From contig JAAXUC010000004.1 of NCBI GenBank assembly GCA_013336225.1, positions 32,421 through 96,420 on the forward strand: 64,000 nt of DNA, read 5' to 3'. Below the pieces are notes generated by a model. That model saw only the letters and a list, made by a program, of their open reading frames with translations, did not search any database and was not told the DNA's origin. Position 1 is the first letter of the stretch. Each line of letters begins with the position of its first letter. This DNA comes from Candidatus Moraniibacteriota bacterium. GTDB lineage: Bacteria > Patescibacteriota > Minisyncoccia > Moranbacterales > GWC2-37-73. Below, piece after piece: positions 3,908-60,371 of this stretch. Position numbers and translations under genes: made by a program.

Positions 3908-4020
3908 ATAAATGGAAAATTTCGAATTATGAATTTTGAATTTCGAATGAATTGTTGATGTTTTAAACATTTTGTCATTGGAAATTTTTTAAAAATTAAA
4001 AATTGGAAATTGAAAATTTG
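3908..4020. repeat. AT-rich intergenic repeat module (cgaattatgaattttgaatttcgaat ... ttttaaacatt)
   Basis: The cgaattatgaattttgaatttcgaat block is shared with 60212-60245; the spacer between the two tRNAs also contains aaaatt/gaaatt repeats. Confidence 0.5.
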
Positions 4021-4043: not shown

Positions 4044-4126
4044 GGGTAGTTACCAAAGCGGTCAACTGGATCTGGCTGTAAACCAGACGGCGTAAGCCTT
4101 CGGGGGTTCGAGTCCCTCACTGCCCA
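4044..4126 (+). tRNA. tRNA-Tyr (anticodon GUA, long variable arm)
   Basis: Acceptor GGGTAGT/ACTGCCC, anticodon stem TCTGG/CCAGA with loop CTGTAAA, long variable arm CGGCGTAAGCCTTCG, T-arm GGGGG-TTCGAGT-CCCTC. Confidence 0.85.
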
Positions 4127-4139
4127 CATATGATATTTT

Positions 4140-4170
4140 AAAGACACCCTTTTGGGTGTCTTTAAAATTT
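4140..4170 (+). terminator. rho-independent terminator (aaagacaccc-tttt-gggtgtcttt + A/T tail)
   Basis: Perfect 10-bp stem immediately 3' of tRNA-Tyr. Confidence 0.6.
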
Positions 4171-4178
4171 TATTTGTA

Positions 4179-4400
4179 GTGGGCAGTGAGGGACTCGAAC
4201 GGGTCGAAGTGAGCTAGAAATTTTCAGTAGAAAATTCGCAGCGAACGCCGATGAATGAGAGCGTGCGAGCATTCAGCGCGACCCTGGGCAAGGAGCGAAG
4301 GCGACGCGTAAATCCCTCACTCTTTGTGCAGTGAGGAACTCGAACCGGCAGAAGCGAGCATTAAGCAAAGGCGAGATGGGTGCAGGAATATGACTTAAAT
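4179..4400. repeat. tRNA-Tyr-linked repeat: two inverted copies of the tRNA-Tyr 3' end (4179-4200 and 4332-4356) flanking a conserved core (cgatgaatgagagcgtgcgagcattcagcgc...ggcaaggagcg)
   Basis: 4179-4200 gtgggcagtgagggactcgaac is the exact reverse complement of the tRNA-Tyr T-arm/acceptor 3' end; the core is near-identical to cores at 57657-57700 and 57846-57890. Confidence 0.7.
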
Positions 4401-7960: not shown

Positions 7961-8021
7961 TTAAGTAGGTTAATTTCTTTCTCTGATTATAGCAGGATAA
8001 TCAATTTCCTGCGATGCAATT

Positions 8022-8082
8022 TGTCATTCCCGTGAAAACGGGAATCCAGGGCTAGGCATCACTCTGGATCCCCAGTCAAGCT
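8022..8082. repeat. foldback (MITE-like) element with TGTCAT termini, internal ATTCCCG-N7-CGGGAAT palindrome and GGATCC motifs
   Basis: tgtcattcccgtgaaaacgggaatccaggg... arm pairs with rc arm tgtcatcctcagcttgactggggatccagag; related copies at 54041-54093 and 54967-55051. Confidence 0.55.
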
Positions 8083-8121
8083 GAGGATGACAAAAAATAT
8101 TTAGTGTCATATGAATTTTGC

Positions 8122-9439: not shown

Positions 9440-9610
9440 GCAAGAATCGTATACATAAAAAATTAAATTTTCATTTTCAAATCACTAGCAGGTGAAAAGA
9501 AAACTAGTTTTATGTATAGATACGCTTGATGACTAAACAACTGAAGGTATTAACATAAAAGTCAATTGTAATACGTTTAGGCTGGCTTGTCAAGTGTTTG
9601 GAGGCATATA

Positions 9611-9639
9611 TTGACTTTTGACTTTAAAAGGAGTATAAT
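9611..9639 (+). promoter_or_regulatory. sigma70-like promoter (TTGACT -17- TATAAT) driving the glyQS T-box leader
   Basis: -35 at 9611-9616, -10 at 9634-9639, 17-nt spacer. Confidence 0.55.
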
Positions 9640-9818
9640 AGAGCTATGTGAGGTTGAGAAGAGGGTGGCTCCTTTTTGCCCTAATTGAGGGAAAATCGAA
9701 CTTGCATGCAAAAGAGATGTCCACCAGAAAAGGTGGAAAGTCGGGTGGAACCGCGAGTCAAGACTCGTCCCGTGCATATCAAACACTTGTTTGGTTTGTG
9801 CAGGATGGGTCTTTTTTA
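9640..9818 (+). promoter_or_regulatory. T-box riboswitch leader (Gly-specific expected) with terminator
   Basis: Canonical T-box sequence AGTCGGGTGGAACCGCGAG at 9738-9756, followed by terminator gtgcaggatgggtc + T7 (9799-9817). Confidence 0.6.
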
Positions 9819-9843
9819 TTTTATGAAAATTATTTATTATAAA

Positions 9844-9910
9844 TTAACGAATTGCGAATTAACGAATTAAAAAATGCATAACAAATCCGTTAATGCGTTA
9901 ATACGTTAAT
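9844..9910. repeat. tandem NCGTTAAT octamers (ttaacgaattgcgaattaacgaattaa ... ccgttaat gcgttaat acgttaat) between the T-box terminator and the glyQS start
   Basis: Direct reading; the same octamer triplet lies upstream of proS at 20831-20855. Confidence 0.65.
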
Positions 9911-9926
9911 AAGTAATTTAAATCAT

Positions 9927-11297
9927 ATGGAAGAAAAAAAGGTGACAAAAATGGAAGACATTGTTTCATTTTGCAAACGCAGGGGATTTGTTTTTCCAAC
10001 TTCAGAAATTTATGGAGGATTGGCAAATTCATATAGCTATGGTCCGTATGGGGCAGAGTTGAAAAATAACATCAAGAAAATGTGGTGGAAAAAATTCGTG
10101 CAAAAGCGCGAAGATGTGGTGGGCATGGATGGTCCAATTTTGCTCAACACGAAACTTTGGGAAGCTTCTGGTCACATTGGAGGTTTCAATGATGCTTCAG
10201 TTGATTGCAAAAAGTGCAACAAAAGATTTCGAGCTGATCATGTGGTGAAGGAACTGACTGGAGAAGACATGGAAGGTGAACTGGAAAAGATGACCGCAAC
10301 TTTGCAGGCTGGGCTTAAATGTCCTGAATGCGGAAAATCTGATTGGACCGAGGTGCGCAACATGAGTCAGATGTTTCAAACAGAAATGAATGGGGTGGAT
10401 GGACCGATCTATCTTCGTCCGGAAACAGCCGGAGCAATTTTTTCTGACTACAAGAACGTGGTTGATTCAATGCGCGTGAAAATTCCTTTTGGAATTGCGC
10501 AAATTGGAAAAGCTTTTCGCAATGAAATTGTGGCGAGAAATTTCATTTTCAGAATTCGAGAATTTGAACAAATGGAAATTGAATATTTCATCGAGCCAGA
10601 AGCGAAGTGGGAAGCAATGTTTGAAAAGTGGTTGGATGAGCAGGAAGAATTCGCACTTTCGCTTGGTGCTAAAAAAGAAGATTTGAGGCGCTATGAACAT
10701 CCTAAAGCAAAGCTCTCACATTATTCCAGAAAAACTGTGGATACTGAATATAATTTCCCCTTTGGATTTGGCGAATTGTTTGGCTTGGCGCATCGTGGTG
10801 ATTTTGATTTGACACAACATTCGAAATTTTCAGGACAAAAACTTGATTATTTTGATGCAGCTGCCAACAAGAGATATGTTCCACACGTGCTTGAGCCAAC
10901 CGTTGGTTTGGATCGTTTAATTTTGACAACCATCTGCGCAGGTTATACTGAGGAAAAATTGGAAGATGGTGAGCGCATTGTGATGAAGTTTCCCAATGCA
11001 GTGGCGCCAATCAAAGTGGCGGTTTTCCCACTGATGAAAAACAAGCCAGAACTTGTTTCCAAGGCCAAAGAAATTTTTGGAAATTTGAGTGAAGATTTCA
11101 TGTGCGAGTTTGATGATAATGGAAATGTTGGAAAACGTTATCGTCGCCAAGATGAAATTGGAACTCCATATTGCGTGACTGTTGATTTTGAAACACTTGA
11201 AGATGGCGCCGTCACCGTGCGCGACCGCGACACCATGAAACAGGAGCGAATCAAAATTTCCGAGCTGCAAACATTCTTCGCAGAGAAATTGCGATAA
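9927..11297 (+). CDS. glyQS: glycyl-tRNA synthetase, alpha2 dimeric type
   Basis: MEDIVSFCKRRGFVFPTSEIYGG...YGPYG N-terminus, class II motifs (FRNEI, GLDR), anticodon-binding C-terminus. The second ATG at 9951 has the better SD. Confidence 0.9.
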   Translation: MEEKKVTKMEDIVSFCKRRGFVFPTSEIYGGLANSYSYGPYGAELKNNIKKMWWKKFVQKREDVVGMDGPILLNTKLWEASGHIGGFNDASVDCKKCNKRFRADHVVKELTGEDMEGELEKMTATLQAGLKCPECGKSDWTEVRNMSQMFQTEMNGVDGPIYLRPETAGAIFSDYKNVVDSMRVKIPFGIAQIGKAFRNEIVARNFIFRIREFEQMEIEYFIEPEAKWEAMFEKWLDEQEEFALSLGAKKEDLRRYEHPKAKLSHYSRKTVDTEYNFPFGFGELFGLAHRGDFDLTQHSKFSGQKLDYFDAAANKRYVPHVLEPTVGLDRLILTTICAGYTEEKLEDGERIVMKFPNAVAPIKVAVFPLMKNKPELVSKAKEIFGNLSEDFMCEFDDNGNVGKRYRRQDEIGTPYCVTVDFETLEDGAVTVRDRDTMKQERIKISELQTFFAEKLR

Positions 11298-13059: not shown

Positions 13060-13173
13060 ATGGGTAAGGGCAGCGGTTCAGGAGGTCATGGAGGCGGCAA
13101 TGCTGGTTCTGGCGGTCAAAGTGGCGGCGGTGGCGGAAGTGCAGGCGGCGGAAGTGGCAGTCGTGGAAAATAG
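13060..13173 (+). CDS. small glycine-rich peptide (37 aa: MGKGSGSGGHGGGNAGSGGQSGGGGGSAGGGSGSRGK)
   Basis: Below the ORF-track cutoff. Strong SD aaagaaagggggtga 7 nt upstream of ATG, and a rho-independent terminator 30 nt downstream. The leader is identical over 15 nt to the leader of the 32839 small ORF. Confidence 0.5.
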   Translation: MGKGSGSGGHGGGNAGSGGQSGGGGGSAGGGSGSRGK

Positions 13174-20719: not shown

Positions 20720-20743
20720 ACTTGCGAAATTAAGAATTAAAAC

Positions 20744-20770: not shown

Positions 20771-20799
20771 TTGCAAAAGGCTGAAAATTTGCTATTATA
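20771..20799 (+). promoter_or_regulatory. candidate promoter (TTGCAA -17- TATTAT) for proS
   Basis: Hexamers at 20771-20776 and 20794-20799. Confidence 0.45.
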
Positions 20800-20830: not shown

Positions 20831-20855
20831 GCGTTAATTCGTTAATGCGTTAATG
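20831..20855. repeat. tandem NCGTTAAT octamers (gcgttaat tcgttaat gcgttaat) immediately upstream of proS
   Basis: Same motif family as 9844-9910 upstream of glyQS. Confidence 0.65.
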
Positions 20856-20868
20856 AATAATAAGAACA

Positions 20869-22110
20869 ATGAAACAATCACAACTATTCACCAAAACTAA
20901 AAAAGAAGCTCCATCAGATGAGGTGGCCAAGAACGCGCAACTTTTGATTCGCGCCGGTTTTATTCACAAAGAAATGGCTGGAGTGTATGCATATATGCCG
21001 CTTGGTCTGCGAGTGCTGGAAAACATTAAGCGTATTGTTCGCGAAGAAATGAATGCTGTCGGCGGTCAGGAATTGATGATGACAACCTTGCAACCCAAAG
21101 AAATTTGGGAGAAGACTGGTCGTTGGGATGATGCCAAGGTGGATAATTGGTTCAAGACTAAATTGGTTAATGGCACAGAACTTGGAGTGGGACTGACTCA
21201 TGAAGAACCAATTGTTGATGCTGTTAGCAACTATCTCAATTCATACAAGGGCATGCCATTTTCAGTGTATCAAATTCAGAATAAATTTAGAAATGAAAAA
21301 CGGGCCAAGAGCGGAATTTTGCGTGGACGCGAATTTTTGATGAAAGATATGTACACATTTTGCAAAGATCAAGAGCAGCATGAGCAGGAATATGAAAAGA
21401 TTGTGGCTGCATATCATCGTGTTTATGCGCGCCTAGGGTTGGGGGAAATCACATATCGCACCTATGCTGATGGAGGAATTTTCACGCCTCGTTTTAGCGA
21501 TGAATTCCAAACACTCACTGAGGTGGGAGAAGATACGATTTATGTTGATGAGAAAAAACGAATTGCAATCAATGAGGAAATTTTGACGGATGAGAACTTG
21601 AAAAAACTCGGCCTTGATCGCAATGATCTTGTGGCGAAAAAAGGCGTTGAAGTCGGAAACACTTTTCATTTGGAAAGCAAATATACTGACGCATTGGATT
21701 TGTTCTATATTGATGAAAAAGGTGAAAAGCAATCAATTTTGATGGGATGCTATGGAATTGGAGTTAGTCGCTTGATGGGAGTTGTTGCGGAACTTTTTTC
21801 TGATGACAAGGGCTTGGTGTGGCCGGAAAATGTTGCGCCGTTTGCTGTGCATCTTTTGAGTCTTGGACAAGATGAAGAAACTGAAAAAATTTGCATCGAA
21901 CTTGAAAAAAACGGAATTGAAGTTTTGTTTGATGATCGCGACGCACAGGCTGGTGCAAAATTTGCCGACTCAGATTTGATTGGAATTCCATGTCGAGTGG
22001 TTGTTAGTAAAAAATCTTTGGCTGCTGGGGGACTTGAAGTGAAAATGCGAAATGAAAGTGAAAGCAAGATTATGACAGTGGAGGAATTGTTGCAAATGCT
22101 AAAAAAGTAA
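20869..22110 (+). CDS. proS: prolyl-tRNA synthetase, short form lacking the INS editing domain
   Basis: N-terminus MKQSQLFTKTKKEAPSDEVAKNAQLLIRAGFIHK...GVYAYMPLG parallels bacterial ProRS; class II motifs and anticodon-binding C-terminus present. At 413 aa there is no room for the ~180-aa insertion domain. Confidence 0.85.
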   Translation: MKQSQLFTKTKKEAPSDEVAKNAQLLIRAGFIHKEMAGVYAYMPLGLRVLENIKRIVREEMNAVGGQELMMTTLQPKEIWEKTGRWDDAKVDNWFKTKLVNGTELGVGLTHEEPIVDAVSNYLNSYKGMPFSVYQIQNKFRNEKRAKSGILRGREFLMKDMYTFCKDQEQHEQEYEKIVAAYHRVYARLGLGEITYRTYADGGIFTPRFSDEFQTLTEVGEDTIYVDEKKRIAINEEILTDENLKKLGLDRNDLVAKKGVEVGNTFHLESKYTDALDLFYIDEKGEKQSILMGCYGIGVSRLMGVVAELFSDDKGLVWPENVAPFAVHLLSLGQDEETEKICIELEKNGIEVLFDDRDAQAGAKFADSDLIGIPCRVVVSKKSLAAGGLEVKMRNESESKIMTVEELLQMLKK

Positions 22111-22279: not shown

Positions 22280-22510
22280 AATGCTAGTATTATTTTAATA
22301 AAAAGATGAATTAAAAGCGTTTGAGGGAATATCAATCCCGAGCTGCAGGAAGAAATGTTTCAGTATATATGATACTTGTGACAAAATAGAACCTGTCGGA
22401 TAAGTCCGTTATAGCCGTTTGAGTCTGGTTGATATGAGAAATAACCAGAAAATTAAGGTGGCACCACGTTTCCAAGACGTCCTTATATCAAGGGATGTTT
22501 TTATTTTATT
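22280..22510 (+). promoter_or_regulatory. T-box riboswitch leader upstream of ileS
   Basis: T-box consensus AAATTAAGGTGGCACCACG at 22450-22468, followed by a terminator-like hairpin and T-run (22470-22508). An AUC Ile codon sits in a candidate specifier loop (gtATCaagaga). Confidence 0.6.
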
Positions 22511-22543
22511 TAAAATATTTTTAATTGTTTAATTTTAAATTTT

Positions 22544-25483
22544 ATGCAATTCAAGAAAGTAGATGCAAGAAAAAAATATTCAGAAATGGAGAAAGAAATA
22601 ATTCAATTTTGGAAAGATGATGGAACTTTCCAAAAATCCATTGAGCAAAAAAAAAATAATAAATATTTTAGTTTTTATGATGGTCCACCATTTATTACTG
22701 GTGTTCCACATTATGGAACATTGTTATCCTCTATCGTGAAGGATGCTGTTCCTAGATATTGGACAATGAAGGGATATCGTGTTGAGCGTCGATGGGGATG
22801 GGACTGTCATGGTCTTCCAGCTGAAAATATGGTGGAGAAGAAATTGGGAATCAAAAATAAACGTGAAATTGAGGAAAAAGTTGGTATTGCTACCTTTGTC
22901 GAGGAATGCATTAAGGAAACATCTCAAATTGCCTCTGAATGGGAAACTGTTATTGATAGAGTTGGTCGCTGGGTGGAGTTTAAAAATGCATACAAGACGA
23001 TGGATAAGAATTATATGGAATCCGTATGGTGGGCATTTTCGCAGCTTCACAAAAAAGGATTGATTTATGAAGATGTGAGAGTATCGCTATATTGTCCTAG
23101 ATGTTCAACGCCTTTATCAAATTTTGAAATTGCGATGGATAATAGCTATGAGATGGATAGTGATCCTTCAGTATATGTAAAAATGAAGATAAATGGTCAA
23201 GAAAATTCATATTTCTTGGTTTGGACAACAACTCCATGGACACTACTTGCTAATGTGGCCTTGGCTGTTGGCGGCGATATTGACTATGTTAAAGTTAGAT
23301 ATAATGATAAAAATGGCAATCCTGAATTTTTTATACTAGCTAAGAATGTATATGAGAAAAGAAGAGACGATTTTTTCCCTGGTGTTAAGAATCTTGGGCC
23401 AGATGAAGTTCCTCCAGTTGCATCAGAAATAGTTGAAGAATTTAAGGGCAATGATTTATTGATTAAGGAGTATGAATCAATATTCCCACATGAAATCGAA
23501 AACGGATATAAAGTAATTGCGGCAGATTTTGTTACAACTGATGATGGTTCGGGGATTGTGCATATCGCTCCAGCATTTGGAGAGGATGATTTTCAAGTTA
23601 GAAAGTCCAATGATTTACCAATAATCATGAATGTTAATGAAGAAGGTCAATTTACTGATGGACTATGGAGTGGACAGAAAGTTTGGGATGCTAATAATGA
23701 GATAGTTAAATGGCTCAAGGAAAACAATATACTTTTTAAGCGCGAACAGATTACACATAGTTACCCCCATTGTCATAGGTGTCATACAAAGCTTATTTAC
23801 AAAGCACAACCAGCTTGGTATGTGAATGTTTCAAAAATTCGTAAAGATTTGATTGCGGAAAACGAAAAAATAAATTGGTTTCCTGAATTTTTAAAACATG
23901 GTCGTTTTCAAAATGGTATTGAAGGTGCTCCAGATTGGAACATTTCTCGTGATCGTTATTTTGGAACAGCAATTCCAGTTTGGAAATGTGATGAATGTGA
24001 TGAAATGAAAGTTTTTGGGTCCTATGAAGAATTGAAAAATGCCTCTGGTATTGAGCTTGACGACTATCATCGTCCAAAGGTTGACGATGTTACTTTTGCT
24101 TGTGAAAAATGTCACGGTAAAATGAAGAGAATACCGCAAGTTTTTGATTCTTGGATTGAATCAGGCTCAATGCCGTTTGCTCAATTTCATTATCCATTTG
24201 AAAATAAAGAGGTTTTTGAAAAGAGTTTTCCTACGGACTTTATTTCAGAATATATTGCCCAAACAAGAGCTTGGTTTTATGTGCTGCACGTTCTTTCTGT
24301 GGGAATTTTTGGAAAAATAAGTTTCAAAAATGTTGTAACAACAGGAACAATTGCTGGAAATGATGGAAAAAAGATGTCAAAATCACTGGGGAATTATACG
24401 CTGCCCGATGTCGTTTTAGAGCAATACAGCGCTGATGCACTTCGACTTTATCTTTTGTCTTCACCGCTACTCAATGCTCAAAATATTAGTTTTTCAGAGA
24501 AATCCATACAAGATATTCAAAGAAAGGTATTGTCAACGCTTTGGAACAGCTATGCTTTCTTTACTCTCTATGCTGATGTTGATAAGTGGACGCCAAAAAA
24601 TAATGCTGGTTCTCCAGCCGATTCTGATAATCTTTTGGATCTTTGGATCGTGTCTGAGCTAAACAAGCTTATTAGAGAGGTTGATACTAATATGGAAGCA
24701 TACGAATTAGTAAAAGCAATCAGACCCTTTGAGAATTTTGTTGATAACTTATCAAACTGGTATATTCGTCGAAGTCGTAAACGTTTTTGGCGAAGTGAGA
24801 ATGATGATGATAAAGGCAATGCGTATCAAACCTTGCACTATGTGTTAGTTACTCTTTCAAAAATAATGGCGCCATTTGCACCATTTATATCTGAAGAGAT
24901 TTATAAGAATTTAACCGGATTGGAATCTGTTCACTTGGAAGATTTTCCTATTGCTGATGCAAAAAGAATAGATGAGGAACTGAACAACAATATGAGTGAT
25001 TTGCGTGAAATTATAACAATAGGTTTGCAAGATCGCGCAAAAAACAAAATTAAGGTTAGACAACCGTTGAGTGGAGTTTTTCTTGGTCAGAAATATAGTA
25101 AAGTCTTCAATGAAACTATAAACAAGCCAGAGTGGAGTATTATTTTAACAGAAGAGTTAAATGTGAAAGGTGCAACACTTGGAACCGAAACGGAAACTGT
25201 AGCAATTGATTCAAATATTACTGCAGAGCTTAAGCTTGAGGGTCAGGCAAGGGAAATCGTTCGTTATATCCAAGAAATGCGTAAGGAGGCTGGTTATGAA
25301 GTTGATAACCATATTATTGTGGGTTATTCCGGGGTAGAGGAAGTCTTTAATGAATTTGGAGATCTTATATCTAGGGAAATATTAGCGGATAAAATACAAT
25401 CTAATAATTTGCCCGAATATGACTTACAAAAAGAGTTCACATTTGATGAGAAAGTGTTTTCAATTACAATAAAAAAACTGTAA
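22544..25483 (+). CDS. ileS: isoleucyl-tRNA synthetase
   Basis: Class I HIGH-region variant PHYGT, KMSKS (KKMSKSLGN), CP1 editing domain and Zn-binding C-terminus; 979 aa. Confidence 0.95.
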   Translation: MQFKKVDARKKYSEMEKEIIQFWKDDGTFQKSIEQKKNNKYFSFYDGPPFITGVPHYGTLLSSIVKDAVPRYWTMKGYRVERRWGWDCHGLPAENMVEKKLGIKNKREIEEKVGIATFVEECIKETSQIASEWETVIDRVGRWVEFKNAYKTMDKNYMESVWWAFSQLHKKGLIYEDVRVSLYCPRCSTPLSNFEIAMDNSYEMDSDPSVYVKMKINGQENSYFLVWTTTPWTLLANVALAVGGDIDYVKVRYNDKNGNPEFFILAKNVYEKRRDDFFPGVKNLGPDEVPPVASEIVEEFKGNDLLIKEYESIFPHEIENGYKVIAADFVTTDDGSGIVHIAPAFGEDDFQVRKSNDLPIIMNVNEEGQFTDGLWSGQKVWDANNEIVKWLKENNILFKREQITHSYPHCHRCHTKLIYKAQPAWYVNVSKIRKDLIAENEKINWFPEFLKHGRFQNGIEGAPDWNISRDRYFGTAIPVWKCDECDEMKVFGSYEELKNASGIELDDYHRPKVDDVTFACEKCHGKMKRIPQVFDSWIESGSMPFAQFHYPFENKEVFEKSFPTDFISEYIAQTRAWFYVLHVLSVGIFGKISFKNVVTTGTIAGNDGKKMSKSLGNYTLPDVVLEQYSADALRLYLLSSPLLNAQNISFSEKSIQDIQRKVLSTLWNSYAFFTLYADVDKWTPKNNAGSPADSDNLLDLWIVSELNKLIREVDTNMEAYELVKAIRPFENFVDNLSNWYIRRSRKRFWRSENDDDKGNAYQTLHYVLVTLSKIMAPFAPFISEEIYKNLTGLESVHLEDFPIADAKRIDEELNNNMSDLREIITIGLQDRAKNKIKVRQPLSGVFLGQKYSKVFNETINKPEWSIILTEELNVKGATLGTETETVAIDSNITAELKLEGQAREIVRYIQEMRKEAGYEVDNHIIVGYSGVEEVFNEFGDLISREILADKIQSNNLPEYDLQKEFTFDEKVFSITIKKL

Positions 25484-34069: not shown

Positions 34070-34118
34070 TGTTTACTGTCGTATTTGGGTTTTCGTGTTT
34101 TATATTACTTCTAATTTT

Positions 34119-34200
34119 GAATCAAATCTGAATGACATAATGTTTAAAAATTAAAACATTAAAAATTCATTCAAAATTCAAAATTGGAAATTCAAAATTT
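34119..34200. repeat. conserved AT-rich intergenic element (aatcaaatctgaatgacataatgtttaaaaattaaaacattaaaaattcattc + aaaattc repeats)
   Basis: Near-identical core to 1625-1680 and 60241-60288. Confidence 0.6.
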
Positions 34201-34277
34201 CCCTGTAGTGGCTTGATATTTATTACTATCTTAGATATACTGGATATATTGAAAAATCATAATAAAATGTAAAGATT

Positions 34278-41382: not shown

Positions 41383-41399
41383 TGCCGCACTGTGTGCGA

Positions 41400-41550
41400 A
41401 TTTACAATTTTTAATTTATAATTTTTAATCAATTTACAATTTTTAAATGCTCGAATTTTGAATATAATTTTTTTTATTGATGTCCAGTTTAAAACTGATG
41501 ATATTATGGGGAATATTTCAAATTTCAAATTTAAAATTTAAAATTATTTA
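41400..41550. repeat. AT-rich intergenic repeat block (aatttacaatttttaat x2, cgaattttgaat, aatttcaaatttcaaatttaaaatttaaaatt)
   Basis: Shares modules with the other AT-rich intergenic elements (1597-1705, 60205-60330). Confidence 0.45.
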
Positions 41551-47013: not shown

Positions 47014-47018
47014 AAAAG

Positions 47019-47125
47019 TTTATAAAGTTATAAAGTTATAAAGTTTGTAAAGTGGTTATGTTTATTGAGAAATATTTATTTTGATATTTCTTTATGAACT
47101 TTAAAAACTTTAAAAACTTGAAACT
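47019..47125. repeat. opposed tandem repeats: ATAAAGTT x3-4 (47019-47055) and AACTTTAAA x3 (47097-47125)
   Basis: Direct reading; ATAAAGTT tandem copies also at 38562-38584 and 57361-57390. Confidence 0.6.
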
Positions 47126-50201: not shown

Positions 50202-50320
50202 GTAGCTTATTAGGCGTTAGCTTCTTAGCTTGTTAGTCTAATAATGGGGATGATACAGATTATAAACATTTTATAAAAAGCTTAGAAGCTAAAAAGCTAA
50301 AAAGCTAAAACCTGATTAAT
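50202..50320. repeat. duplicated intergenic spacer (agcttattaggcgttagcttcttagctt ... aaaaagctaa x3) between rpsM and rpsK
   Basis: Near-identical spacer at 50797-50881 between rpsK and rpsD; an AAAAGCTAA tandem also occurs at 55065-55095. Confidence 0.6.
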
Positions 50321-50796: not shown

Positions 50797-50881
50797 AGCT
50801 TATTAGGCGTTAGCTTCTCAGCTTCTCAGGAAAACAATTTCCTAAAAAGCTAAAAAGCTAAATAGCTAAAACCTGATTTTT
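50797..50881. repeat. second copy of the ribosomal-operon intergenic spacer (agcttattaggcgttagcttctcagctt ... aaaaagctaaaaagctaaatagctaaaacctgat)
   Basis: Paralogous to 50202-50320. Confidence 0.6.
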
Positions 50882-54929: not shown

Positions 54930-54966
54930 AATATCAAAAAACGCATTTTGCAATGCGTTCTTATCT

Positions 54967-55051
54967 TGTCATCCTGAATGCAATGAAGGATCCCGTGCTC
55001 AGTATTAGTAGCTAAGATATTTAGGGATTCTTCGCTTCACTCAGAATGACA
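54967..55051. repeat. 85-bp imperfect foldback (MITE-like) element with TGTCATYCTGA termini and internal GGATCC
   Basis: Left arm tgtcatcctgaatgcaatgaaggatccc vs rc of right arm tgtcattctgagtgaagcgaagaatccc; same family as 8022-8082. Confidence 0.55.
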
Positions 55052-55097
55052 CACTTTTGTATTTTTCTAAGAAGCTAAAAAGCTAAAGCCTGGTAAG

Positions 55098-56633
55098 CTA
55101 GTTTGTTGCAGTGGTTGTTCCGGCTGGGAAGAGGCTTTGCAGGAAGGTGGTGCGCTCAGGAAAGTAAATTGCATGGAGGGCGTTTTGCCCTTGGTCATTT
55201 TTTTCAGTGTAATAGAGTTTGCTGTCGGTGAAGTTGTTCACGAGCAGAGAAGTGTTGTCATTGAGCGACAGGATGTCTGCCATGTTGCGTTTGTCGCGGT
55301 TGTCCAATTCAATCAATTTGATCTTATTGTTATTGGTAAACAAGGCATGCTCGTAGTCTCTGGTCCATTGCACATTTCCAATTTGGTCTGAAAATTTAGT
55401 GATTGACATTAAATCATTTTCATTGCGGGTCGGTTGAACTTCCCATTTACGCACAAAATAGGCTGAGATTTCATGATCATTCCAAAAGAGCAGCTTCTTG
55501 CCATCATCGGAAAATTGGCTTCCCGTGGCATTGCTTGAGAGCTCACGGAAATATGTATCTCCATCTTCGCCCAGATTATAGATGAATAGGTCATTGCTTT
55601 TGTTTAGGAAAACAACGCGATCATCATCATAGACGATGATTTGATATGAGGCATCGCTCATGTTTGCTGGACCAGAAGTGGTGATTTGAGTTGGAAAATC
55701 AGTTGCATCAAAATTGGTCTTATAGACGATTCCTTCTGGCAATTGAAAATAGAAGAGTGCTTTTGGAGAAAGGTCATAGCTGGCGATATTTTCAGCTACC
55801 AATTTTTTGCTGGTCAAATCATTGAGGTCAAAGCGGTAGAGATTGTTGTTGGACATGTAAAAAAGAACGTCTTTGTTTTTTGGATCCCAACGTGAATGAG
55901 AAAGATTATTGTCTCCAGTGAGGTCTCTGATGTTGACGATGTCTTGAGTGTTGTCTGCTGATACAATGAAATAATTTTTTTCGCCGCCTTCATTTTTGAT
56001 TGCGGGAATGATGAGTCGATGAGCTTGGGGCGACCACTCAATGTTTTCCTTGCTGTCATTGGTGAATTTATAATCATCTGCAATAAAAACTTGCCCCATC
56101 TCGAGAGTGCCAGGATTAAAAATTTTCACCAAGAAGTTGTTTTCAATTTGCTGTGAGAAAGCTGCCAAGTTTTTGCGAGGAGAAATGAAGAATTTTCCAA
56201 TGCCAGGGGAGTCGTAATCTTCGCGAGCGTATGAATTTTGAGCTAGGGTAATGTTCCAGAATTCAGTTGAGATTCCGCTGTGCACTGATATTTTTTTTGA
56301 CCAAGCTTGATAGCCTGGAGCTTTGACTTCAACCAAATAGTTTCCTGGCACAATACCTCCGATATGATATGAATTATTGAGACGATTGAATGATTTTGAG
56401 GGCATGATCACGCCATCAATATAGACATCAACTTGTTGAGGTGTTGTTTTCAGGGAAATTGAACCGGCATAGACAAAAATTCCATTTTGAAAATTGAAAC
56501 GGTAACCGAAGGCATAGCCAATAATGGTGGCTGAGGTAAGCCAAAAAAGGACAACTAGTGTCCAAAAAAAGATCGCTTTGGGTATTTCAGGATTGTTCAT
56601 TTGGCAGTAGAAATTCGAAAGGCTCTTGGCCAA
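55098..56633 (-). CDS. membrane-anchored PEGA-domain protein with large beta-rich C-terminal region
   Basis: N-terminal TM helix; PEGA-like VDVYIDGVIMPSKSF...GNYLVEVKAPGYQAWSKKISVHSG. Confidence 0.5.
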   Translation of the reverse strand: MAKSLSNFYCQMNNPEIPKAIFFWTLVVLFWLTSATIIGYAFGYRFNFQNGIFVYAGSISLKTTPQQVDVYIDGVIMPSKSFNRLNNSYHIGGIVPGNYLVEVKAPGYQAWSKKISVHSGISTEFWNITLAQNSYAREDYDSPGIGKFFISPRKNLAAFSQQIENNFLVKIFNPGTLEMGQVFIADDYKFTNDSKENIEWSPQAHRLIIPAIKNEGGEKNYFIVSADNTQDIVNIRDLTGDNNLSHSRWDPKNKDVLFYMSNNNLYRFDLNDLTSKKLVAENIASYDLSPKALFYFQLPEGIVYKTNFDATDFPTQITTSGPANMSDASYQIIVYDDDRVVFLNKSNDLFIYNLGEDGDTYFRELSSNATGSQFSDDGKKLLFWNDHEISAYFVRKWEVQPTRNENDLMSITKFSDQIGNVQWTRDYEHALFTNNNKIKLIELDNRDKRNMADILSLNDNTSLLVNNFTDSKLYYTEKNDQGQNALHAIYFPERTTFLQSLFPAGTTTATN

Positions 56634-57463: not shown

Positions 57464-57536
57464 GGGCACATAGCTCAGTTGGTAGAGCAGCGGCCTTTTA
57501 AGCCGATGGTCGGGGGTTCGAATCCCTCTGTGCCCA
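57464..57536 (+). tRNA. tRNA-Lys (anticodon UUU)
   Basis: Acceptor GGGCACA/TGTGCCC, anticodon loop CTTTTAA, T-arm GGGGG-TTCGAAT-CCCTC. Confidence 0.85.
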
Positions 57537-57549
57537 CATATGATAATTT

Positions 57550-57580
57550 AAAAACACCCTTTGGGGTGTTTTTAAATTTT
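57550..57580 (+). terminator. rho-independent terminator (aaacaccc-tttg-gggtgttttt)
   Basis: Immediately 3' of tRNA-Lys; same architecture as the tRNA-Tyr terminator. Confidence 0.6.
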
Positions 57581-57586
57581 TATTAG

Positions 57587-57970
57587 AGGCACAGAGGGAT
57601 TCGAACGGGCAGAAGCTAAGCAAATTGTTTTTCAGCAGAAAAGCAATGCGGCGTGCGTCGATGAATGCGAGGAATACGAGCATTCAGCGCTGCCCAGGAC
57701 AAGGAGCAAGTGAGCGACGGCGAACGAGCGACGCGTGACAGACTGTGCCCACAAAGAGAAAAATCCCTATTGGGGATTTTTTTGTCTTTGTGCACAGAGG
57801 GATTCGAACCGGCAGGAGTGAGATATGAGCGAAGGCGAATAATCGAACGCCGATGAATGAGAGCGTGCGAGCATTCAGCGCTGCCGCGGGCAACGAGCTG
57901 TCAGCAGACAGTGAGGCGGAAATCCTTTGTCTAAATTGTACACACAGAGGGATTCGAACGGGCAGGAGTT
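57587..57970. repeat. tRNA-Lys-linked repeat array: three inverted copies of the tRNA-Lys 3' end (57589-57612, 57790-57815, 57939-57966) interleaved with the conserved core (cgatgaatg[a/c]gag..cgagcattcagcgctgcc)
   Basis: cacagagggattcgaac is the reverse complement of GGTTCGAATCCCTCTGTG; cores at 57657-57700 and 57846-57890 are near-identical to the core at 4247-4290 in the tRNA-Tyr locus. Confidence 0.7.
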
Positions 57971-57971
57971 T

Positions 57972-58012
57972 AGATAAAAAAAGAAGTCCATTGGATTTAC
58001 CAATAGGACTTC
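57972..58012 (-). terminator. rho-independent terminator for the minus-strand 58039..58284 gene (agaagtcc-attggatttaccaat-aggacttct, T-run on minus strand)
   Basis: A7 at 57972-57978 on the plus strand equals a T-run after the hairpin in the minus-strand sense. Confidence 0.5.
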
Positions 58013-60204: not shown

Positions 60205-60330
60205 GCTTCGCGAATTTTGAATTATGAATTTTGAATTTCGAATAAAATCAGAATGACAAAATGTTTAAAAATTCAAACATTAAAAATTAAAAAATTGATT
60301 CAAAATTAAAAATTAAAAATTAAAAATTAT
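60205..60330. repeat. conserved AT-rich intergenic element (cgaattttgaattatgaattttgaatttcgaat + aataaaatcagaatgacaaaatgtttaaaaattcaaacatt + AAAAATT x4)
   Basis: Core matches 1625-1680 and 34119-34172; the 5' module matches 3924-3950. Confidence 0.6.
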
Positions 60331-60371
60331 ACGTCATAATTAATGACTACAGTTTTTATTTTATTTCAATC

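Follow-up and report, generated by a model that had tools for sequence, protein, structure and literature searches.

Two synthetase genes in a 64,000-nt stretch of a Candidatus Moraniibacteriota genome (contig JAAXUC010000004.1; hereafter the window), i.e. glyS and proS, are preceded by the same triple of tandem octamers with the core CGTTAAT. This raises the question of whether the octamers form a control site common to aminoacyl-tRNA synthetase genes, as the initial annotation had proposed, or whether they came to lie in both leaders irrespective of what the genes encode.

The octamer arrays upstream of glyS and proS

Upstream of glyS, CGTTAAT occurs on the + strand at 9888-9894, 9896-9902 and 9904-9910, i.e. 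with an 8-nt period, and in inverted form at 9843-9849 and 9858-9864, these two being separated by the variant unit ATTGCGA of 7 nt, while the copies upstream of proS lie at 20832-20838, 20840-20846 and 20848-20854. The octamers had thus been placed correctly by the initial annotation, and their recurrence is far beyond chance: the triple CGTTAATNCGTTAATNCGTTAAT has two exact matches in the window against 0.01 expected from dinucleotide-preserving shuffles, with no shuffle of the window reproducing such a triple. The single heptamer is weakly enriched in the window (11 copies against 5.8 expected), and 8 of these 11 copies sit in the glyS and proS loci. DNA uptake sequences are short motifs in genome-wide excess as single copies, with about one per kb, coding DNA included; this identity was ruled out on the counts just given, because the heptamer is not dispersed as single copies in the window.

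The gene downstream of the first array, labelled glyQS in the initial annotation, encodes a dimeric, single-chain glycine--tRNA ligase (9927-11297, + strand; NF003211, 614 bits; TIGR00389), which starts at ATG 9927 or ATG 9951 and has homologues named Moranbacteria or Parcubacteria, in agreement with a member of Candidatus Moranbacteria (CPR/Patescibacteria). Its leader contains, also on the + strand, a promoter-like site, TTGACT-17-TATAAT (9611-9639; 11/12 consensus matches, by consensus match alone), and a divergent putative glycine T-box leader (9608-9775). The designation as T-box holds in part: the Rfam scan at the gathering threshold returned no T-box match at glyS, RF00230 reaching 37.2 bits where 93 is the gathering score (E 9.4e-7 for a 521-nt region), while the box GGGUGGAACCGCG aligns to the RF00230 model and a strong terminator stands before the synthetase gene, with a hairpin at 9760-9813 and a U-run at 9812-9817 (feature 9760-9817, + strand; dG -29.5 kcal/mol, z -6.5, 0/200 shuffles as good). 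The premise that nothing is to be expected between such a terminator and the ATG is weak, since 40-180 nt separate the two in all orthologous leaders with a T-box.

The two halves of the glyS array had been read as separate motifs. As the upstream string is the octamer inverted, they are instead the arms of one inverted repeat, all parts of which are given here for the + strand. The left arm, ATTAACG-A-ATTGCG-A-ATTAACG-AATT (9843-9868), can also be written as ATTAACGA-ATTGCGA-ATTAACGA-ATT, i.e. with an irregular middle unit of 7 nt that is one base short, and an identical 26-mer is found at two other loci (L098 and L106). It is followed by a loop, aaaaaatgcataacaaatc (9869-9887, as placed by the RNA fold), and by the right arm, CGTTAAT-g-CGTTAAT-a-CGTTAAT (9888-9910), which pairs with the left one. 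An AT-only flank with degenerate outer units borders the left arm (aaaattatttattataa, 9826-9842; upstream consensus aATTaat.A), and AAGTAATT (9911-9918; family consensus AAATAATT or TGAATAATT) borders the right arm, with outward pairing of the two flanks above background for ~8-15 nt. Folded as RNA, the region 9836-9920 yields a periodic hairpin (dG -19.4 kcal/mol, z -4.07, 0/200 shuffles as good), and in read-through mRNA the glyS copy would form such an AU-rich hairpin, ending 16 nt before ATG 9927. Of the shared RNA element suggested for the 5′UTRs, a possible RNA hairpin at glyS is therefore retained, while its specificity for synthetase genes is not.

At proS, encoding a proline--tRNA ligase (20869-22110, + strand; TIGR00409, 416 bits), a promoter-like site identified by consensus match (TTGCAA-16-TATTAT with TG; 20771-20798, + strand) precedes a solo right arm of the same family (D8), gCGTTAAT-tCGTTAAT-gCGTTAAT with the terminal flank TGAATAAT (20831-20861, + strand). 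The flank corresponds to the right-end consensus of the CGTTAAT family, and the element ends 7 nt upstream of the ATG. No convincing left arm was found at proS, with one degenerate candidate at 20724-20743, and Rfam scans at the gathering and at a permissive threshold returned nothing at this locus. Since both arrays are downstream of promoter-like sites, they are placed in the 5′UTRs of the two genes and the copies are probably transcribed. The two loci do share an element, as had been claimed; the claim that it is a control site of synthetase genes fails on its distribution, described below.

The third synthetase gene of the window is ileS: between its T-box and the ATG, Tandem Repeats Finder reports a different array, ATTTTAA x3.9 (22517-22544, + strand). 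The ileS T-box (22311-22487) scored 57.6 bits against the gathering score of 93, and the ATTTTAA array abuts the ATG (22544). All told, the permissive Rfam matches were the weak T-boxes at glyS and ileS; T-boxes of this lineage seem to be missed systematically at the curated cut-off.

An element specific to synthetase genes should be conserved at orthologous loci. We compared seven glyS leaders (84-100 % GlyRS identity), in six of which the T-box core is conserved (alignment A1), while the hairpin element is present in two, i.e. those of the window and of L005. At its position, L002 has 180 nt of unrelated sequence, L003 a different repeat, and L229 and L230 plain AT-rich DNA; L228 is devoid of any leader. 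In L005, the most distant relative compared (84 % GlyRS identity), the element has the same position and a similar loop, and its arms are better conserved with respect to the window than stem I of the T-box, a hint of either constraint or homogenisation between copies. Further copies of the family are found in L005 between atpF, atpH and atpA. Considering that the compact spacers of L229 and L230 are almost free of arrays and that L003 carries other repeats, the array load is lineage-specific. Arrays were also absent from two distant proS orthologues (~45 % identity).

In the source metagenome assembly, a short-read contig breaks within the glyS left arm. Two independent Logan short-read contigs, L001 and L004, likewise end exactly within the repeat upstream of glyS; the elements therefore fragment assemblies of such genomes.

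Dispersal of the element between genes

Searching metagenomes for a 22-nt left-arm pattern that includes the irregular unit, ATTAACGAATTNNGAATTAACG, we found 108 stretches with 102-103 unique copies, in which the free bases are GC in 62, AC in 19, AT in 8 and GT in 6. More than 100 copies agree throughout the 7-nt core, with variation at the eighth base. Among 103 unique left arms, at least two perfect right units follow within 8-81 nt in 41 cases; in 12 the right arm is weaker, and in 50 there is none. Half of the left arms thus lack a partner close by, so that a hairpin cannot be obligatory. From these copies, a full element would measure ~75-95 nt. Its left arm would consist of three or four ATTAACGA units, one of which is the irregular ATTGCGA, and its right arm of two to four NCGTTAAT units; the loop between them varies, and the outer flanks are AT-only. 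One full copy is present in the glyS leader and a solo right arm in that of proS.

One subfamily has an identical 53-nt core and ~10-nt flanks at at least 11 different loci. Independent origin cannot account for an irregular unit, spacer bases and flanks that the copies have in common, and entire elements must therefore have been copied from site to site. Full copies are followed by atpH, infC, rpsM, grpE, trpS, rpsH, rplI, recA, ssb and gatC, to which inspection by eye added genes for GlyRS, for ParB-, GyrB-, RseP- and HtpX-like proteins and for others. Relative to the flanking co-directional genes, full copies are oriented 14 to 12, and they nearly fill their spacers, at 2-40 nt from either flanking gene. 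The element is thus placed in short co-directional spacers, in either orientation and independently of the function of the neighbouring genes. The initial annotation had envisaged a common protein-binding site of synthetase genes, to be checked by enrichment of the motif upstream of translation genes; this was not borne out, as copies in either orientation precede unrelated housekeeping genes, among them atpH, grpE, recA and ssb with full copies, and five of the seven orthologous glyS leaders are without one. Being a hairpin repeat scattered between all kinds of genes, CGTTAAT therefore marks no shared synthetase control site.

At six loci (L121, L171, L192, L193, L196 and L201), the ATTAACGA left arm faces a right arm composed of a sister unit, AACTCGTTAACTCGCTAAACTCGTTAACT. 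As these arms mismatch (A.C) on one strand and form G.U pairs on the other, the copies appear to be chimeric or to represent diverging subfamilies.

A scan of one genome per species placed CGTTAAT x3 at more than 114 loci in many phyla. In several Patescibacteria genomes it forms hairpins with the left arm of the window, while in Bacteroidota and Gammaproteobacteria it occurs as plain arrays, often beside other arrays and without the hairpin form seen in CPR. Viral contigs gave 22 matches to CGTTAAT x3 against 7, 9 and 7 for three composition-matched control octamers (~3-fold enrichment); no viral contig matched the left-arm pattern, which gives no sign of phage carriage. With the control octamers also frequent in the viral collection, the occurrence of CGTTAAT across phyla mostly reflects a general abundance of 8-nt tandem repeats, and a universal functional motif was rejected on these grounds together with the plain form of the arrays elsewhere.

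The CGTTAAT copies are one part of a larger array load. Tandem Repeats Finder reported dozens of short arrays of period 7-9 with differing units in the window. Counting those of period 6-10 with at least 2.5 copies, and with crude gene calling, 24 of 27 are intergenic, although intergenic DNA makes up 14.7 % of the bases (binomial p 2e-17); the density is 2.55 per kb in intergenic and 0.05 per kb in coding DNA, i.e. ~50-fold different, and dinucleotide shuffles of the spacers gave 1.5 +/- 1.4 arrays against the 24 found. At least five unit families of the window have a left array, 12-50 nt, and a right array of the reverse-complement unit. An inverted pair of family D9, TTAGCTTC / AGCTAAAA, has the glyS architecture in the rpsM-rpsK spacer (50217-50313, + strand), and a second copy of the AGCTAAAA family follows in the rpsK-rpsD spacer (50810-50873, + strand), both spacers being very short in most bacteria. 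Another pair, AAAGTTTAT / AACTTTAAA, fills a whole spacer (47015-47123, + strand; dG -26.9, z -4.5), and an array of TAACTAAT precedes frr. In 943 kb of related loci, we counted 408 arrays with 145 distinct units.

Taken together, these data make it likely that the CGTTAAT octamers belong to a dispersed foldback-type repeat family of CPR/Patescibacteria that is selfish or neutral and acts on the mRNAs carrying it, if at all, as hairpins do in general. The arrays may have grown and shrunk through replication slippage of their 7-9-nt units, and whole elements may have been carried to new spacers by a transposase acting in trans or by recombination; we infer this mobility from dispersal alone. 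The motif would then be common to two synthetase genes only since both spacers were colonised. Its effect on expression is probably neutral or generic: any influence would be one generic to hairpins, on processing or stability, rather than amino-acid-specific, regulation of the latter kind being presumably supplied by the T-box.

Phase-variable loci carry a repeat tract 5′ of surface or variable genes, with unit numbers that differ between near-identical strains. A contingency locus of this type was ruled out by the housekeeping neighbours and by the equal unit numbers at one locus across samples (L122/L160, L154/L177 and L156/L163).

Known repeat systems and competing explanations

The closest description that we found is that of the GGGAATC arrays of Xanthomonas, i.e. 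tandem 7-nt units in ~4 copies, nearly all intergenic, mostly in co-directional spacers and on either strand, with 70-75 convergent array pairs forming possible stem-loops, located beside housekeeping genes and of unknown function (Rehm et al. 2015, PMC4692102). The same paper treats the over-representation of heptamers in bacteria, including the Calothrix heptanucleotides and cyanobacterial STRR (PMC4692102). As in these STRR/Xanthomonas-type repeats, the CGTTAAT arrays are tandem, of 7-9-nt units, strongly intergenic and often arranged as inverted pairs. The units here differ from those of Xanthomonas in being AT-rich 7-9-mers without G-quadruplex potential and in the coexistence of many unit families, and the host is a member of the CPR, not of the Proteobacteria or Cyanobacteria. 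Moreover, in one family here both the irregular unit and the flanks are fixed, so that this family, unlike the arrays of Xanthomonas, has the behaviour of a discrete dispersed element.

REPs are 20-40-bp palindromes with an unpaired GTAG or CGTC tag (PMC3733652). REP, BIME and REPIN sequences are dispersed, often where the adjoining genes run in one direction; their transcription is plausible, and mobilisation in trans has been proposed for them (Di Nocera et al. 2013, PMC3733652). The CGTTAAT element resembles them as a dispersed extragenic repeat between co-directional genes, but has no GTAG/CGTC tag, is longer (~75 nt) and has arms of tandem repeats. Inverted arms made up of internal tandem repeats, in which unit number and central part both vary, are known from eukaryotic foldback transposons such as Drosophila FB, Tetris and Galileo (PMC4079207). 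This is an analogy of architecture that implies no homology, as those transposons belong to eukaryotes, have sizes in the kilobase range and are built from units of tens to hundreds of bp. MITEs such as Correia/NEMIS, ERIC, RUP and BOX are non-coding, ~70-150 nt long, bounded by terminal inverted repeats and co-transcribed as RNA hairpins. By description the CGTTAAT element is similar, i.e. short, non-coding, with inverted ends and many dispersed copies in both orientations that are variably present, whereas its arms consist of tandem octamers, its unit number varies and solo arms are frequent. No direct repeat beyond the conserved flanks was seen among the copies as a target-site duplication, the element-free orthologous glyS leaders being unalignable at this position, and none of these leaders offered a clean empty site. 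A search of the literature on CPR repeats, on MITEs in Patescibacteria and on tandem octamers returned nothing specific; the family may therefore be undescribed, while its kind is already known.

Against a selfish or neutral repeat, host-selected RNA hairpins between cistrons or in 5′UTRs have to be weighed, which would serve as RNase III-type sites, as exonuclease barriers or to bring stop and start codons close together where Shine-Dalgarno sequences are rare. Their appeal lies in the position of the elements, which nearly fill co-directional spacers at the short distances given above and whose right arms in the window stop 7-15 nt short of a start codon, in the predicted hairpins of several window elements (z -2.7 to -4.5), in the retention of the glyS copy in L005 and in the scarcity of Shine-Dalgarno cores, found within 20 nt of the start in 8 of 61 window genes; REP, ERIC and Correia elements are known to affect mRNA decay. 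However, selection at the RNA level should favour the sense strand, and folding of 11 window elements gave no sense advantage, with the antisense equal or better in 5/11 and far better upstream of rpsD (dG -34.2 against -19.7). G.U asymmetry as a sign of such selection gave no signal either, the orientation of the copies is unbiased (14 to 12), and the variation of the irregular unit (GC, AC, AT, GT) is one-sided, in a covariation test limited by arms that are fixed by the search pattern. Some families have C.A mismatches on the sense strand, the folds of some AT-only elements are no more stable than those of shuffles (z -0.2 to -1.2), solo arms are common, and close relatives are without elements in the corresponding spacers. 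Nor do arrays compensate for Shine-Dalgarno sequences: the core is lacking in 10/10 array-preceded genes and in 43/51 of the others, which is no difference. Host-selected hairpins are thus unlikely, if still deserving consideration.

The invariant 7-nt core with its free eighth base would also fit the recognition site of a conserved factor. This might be an operator, bound cooperatively by a ribbon-helix-helix-type or other regulator on tandem 8-bp units and defining a synthetase or broad housekeeping regulon. MetJ met boxes and the heptads of the omega repressor consist of two to five contiguous 7-8-bp units, direct or inverted, at the promoters of a defined regulon. The CGTTAAT element shares the contiguous short units, here in arrays of two to four with an 8-bp period, direct and inverted, near start codons in 5′UTR or promoter regions, and the core is kept across many CPR lineages. 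Its distribution, in contrast, follows neither the function of the genes nor their place in an operon: no function unites the flanking genes, operons such as atp and the ribosomal protein cluster contain copies in both orientations, the distance between the arms ranges from 8 to 81 nt, and five of seven orthologous glyS leaders do without. Furthermore, at least five other unit families in a genome of ~1 Mb, and 145 units across relatives, would each need a protein of their own. We therefore regard operators as improbable.

Outward promoters at the element ends, with T(G/A)AATAAT as -10, TTCGCA or TTAATG as -35 and a very short downstream leader, are less probable still. Outward-facing promoters have been described for Correia elements, TGAATAAT at proS ends 7 nt before the ATG, a minus-strand promoter-like match points outward from the glyS left arm (9858->9829), and the element end is often 6-25 nt from the start codon. 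Yet the matches are weak (at most 9/12), -10-like hexamers are frequent in AT-rich DNA, the distance to the ATG ranges from -1 to 59 nt, and better promoter-like sites lie upstream at both loci. We assign the lowest probability, a very small one, to local slippage in AT-rich spacers without dispersal, by which the two synthetase loci would be alike through chance or convergence. Tandem 8-mers are indeed common (more than 114 genomes contain CGTTAAT x3, as do 22 viral contigs, where the controls reach 7-9), CPR loci display 145 distinct units, and unit number varies between copies; nevertheless, the irregular unit, the spacer bases (g, c), the flanks and the 53-nt cores at at least 11 unrelated loci cannot have arisen independently, and slippage alone is largely refuted by the common irregular unit and the identical cores.

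Pure neutrality, on the other hand, is argued against by the invariant core and the retention in L005, which fit a selfish element with a recognised core, homogenisation or a host factor without telling them apart. It is tempting to speculate, with little confidence, about a hitherto undescribed CPR/Patescibacteria-wide foldback system with tandem-repeat arms that is kept by selection, its core being read by a trans factor and its hairpins serving as cistron punctuation. The core-reading factor would then be either the mobilising enzyme or an RNA/DNA-binding protein and would explain why the core is kept in more than 100 copies and in divergent lineages, while the hairpins would have roles in processing, insulation or stop-start coupling in small genomes with little use of Shine-Dalgarno sequences. 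Should the elements indeed punctuate RNA functionally or be targeted by a conserved factor, they would open a way to study gene expression in organisms that do not grow on their own.

For the dispersed repeat that we favour, the consequences are practical. Repeated motifs before related CPR genes should not be annotated as regulons until dispersed repeats have been excluded. CPR genomes are usually regarded as streamlined; very small genomes can nonetheless carry lineage-specific blooms of hairpin repeats, which take up much of the spacer DNA and break short-read assemblies.

Further repeats and leader features of the window

A second dispersed family, of ~110 nt, is present in five copies in the 64 kb (1597-1705, 3914-4019, 34092-34203, 41399-41548 and 60213-60331), with AATTTTN arrays on one side, CAAAATT/ATTTCAA on the other and a conserved core, aatcaaatctgaatgacataatgtttaaaaattaaaacatt, containing a small hairpin; one of the five copies is inverted and lies between two tRNA genes. 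The TTAGCTTC / AGCTAAAA family, with its cctga motif, has a partial copy between convergent genes (55059-55102).

Downstream of two tRNA genes, the regions 4100-4374 and 57510-57973 form a duplication of 89 % identity that includes the tRNA 3′ end and a terminator-like hairpin. The duplicated regions are followed by several CAGTGAGGGACTCGAACGGG... motifs resembling the reverse complement of a tRNA 3′ half, and may be integration-site remnants or tRNA pseudogenes.

Long palindromes of higher GC content (of the gtcatcctgag...ctcaggatgac and ctcccggagggagaag types) occupy window spacers at 7990-8095 and 54960-55055. They are more abundant in L003 (8284-8500, 13602-13829, 15099-15318 and 20941-21211) and constitute a distinct MITE-like family.

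Most starts in the window are preceded by A/T-rich sequence, and the genes between 13 kb and 55 kb are nearly all on one strand. A long spacer holds a short glycine-rich ORF, MGKGSGSGGHGGGNAGSGGQSGGGGGSAGGGSGSRGK (13060-13172), with a good ribosome-binding site upstream.
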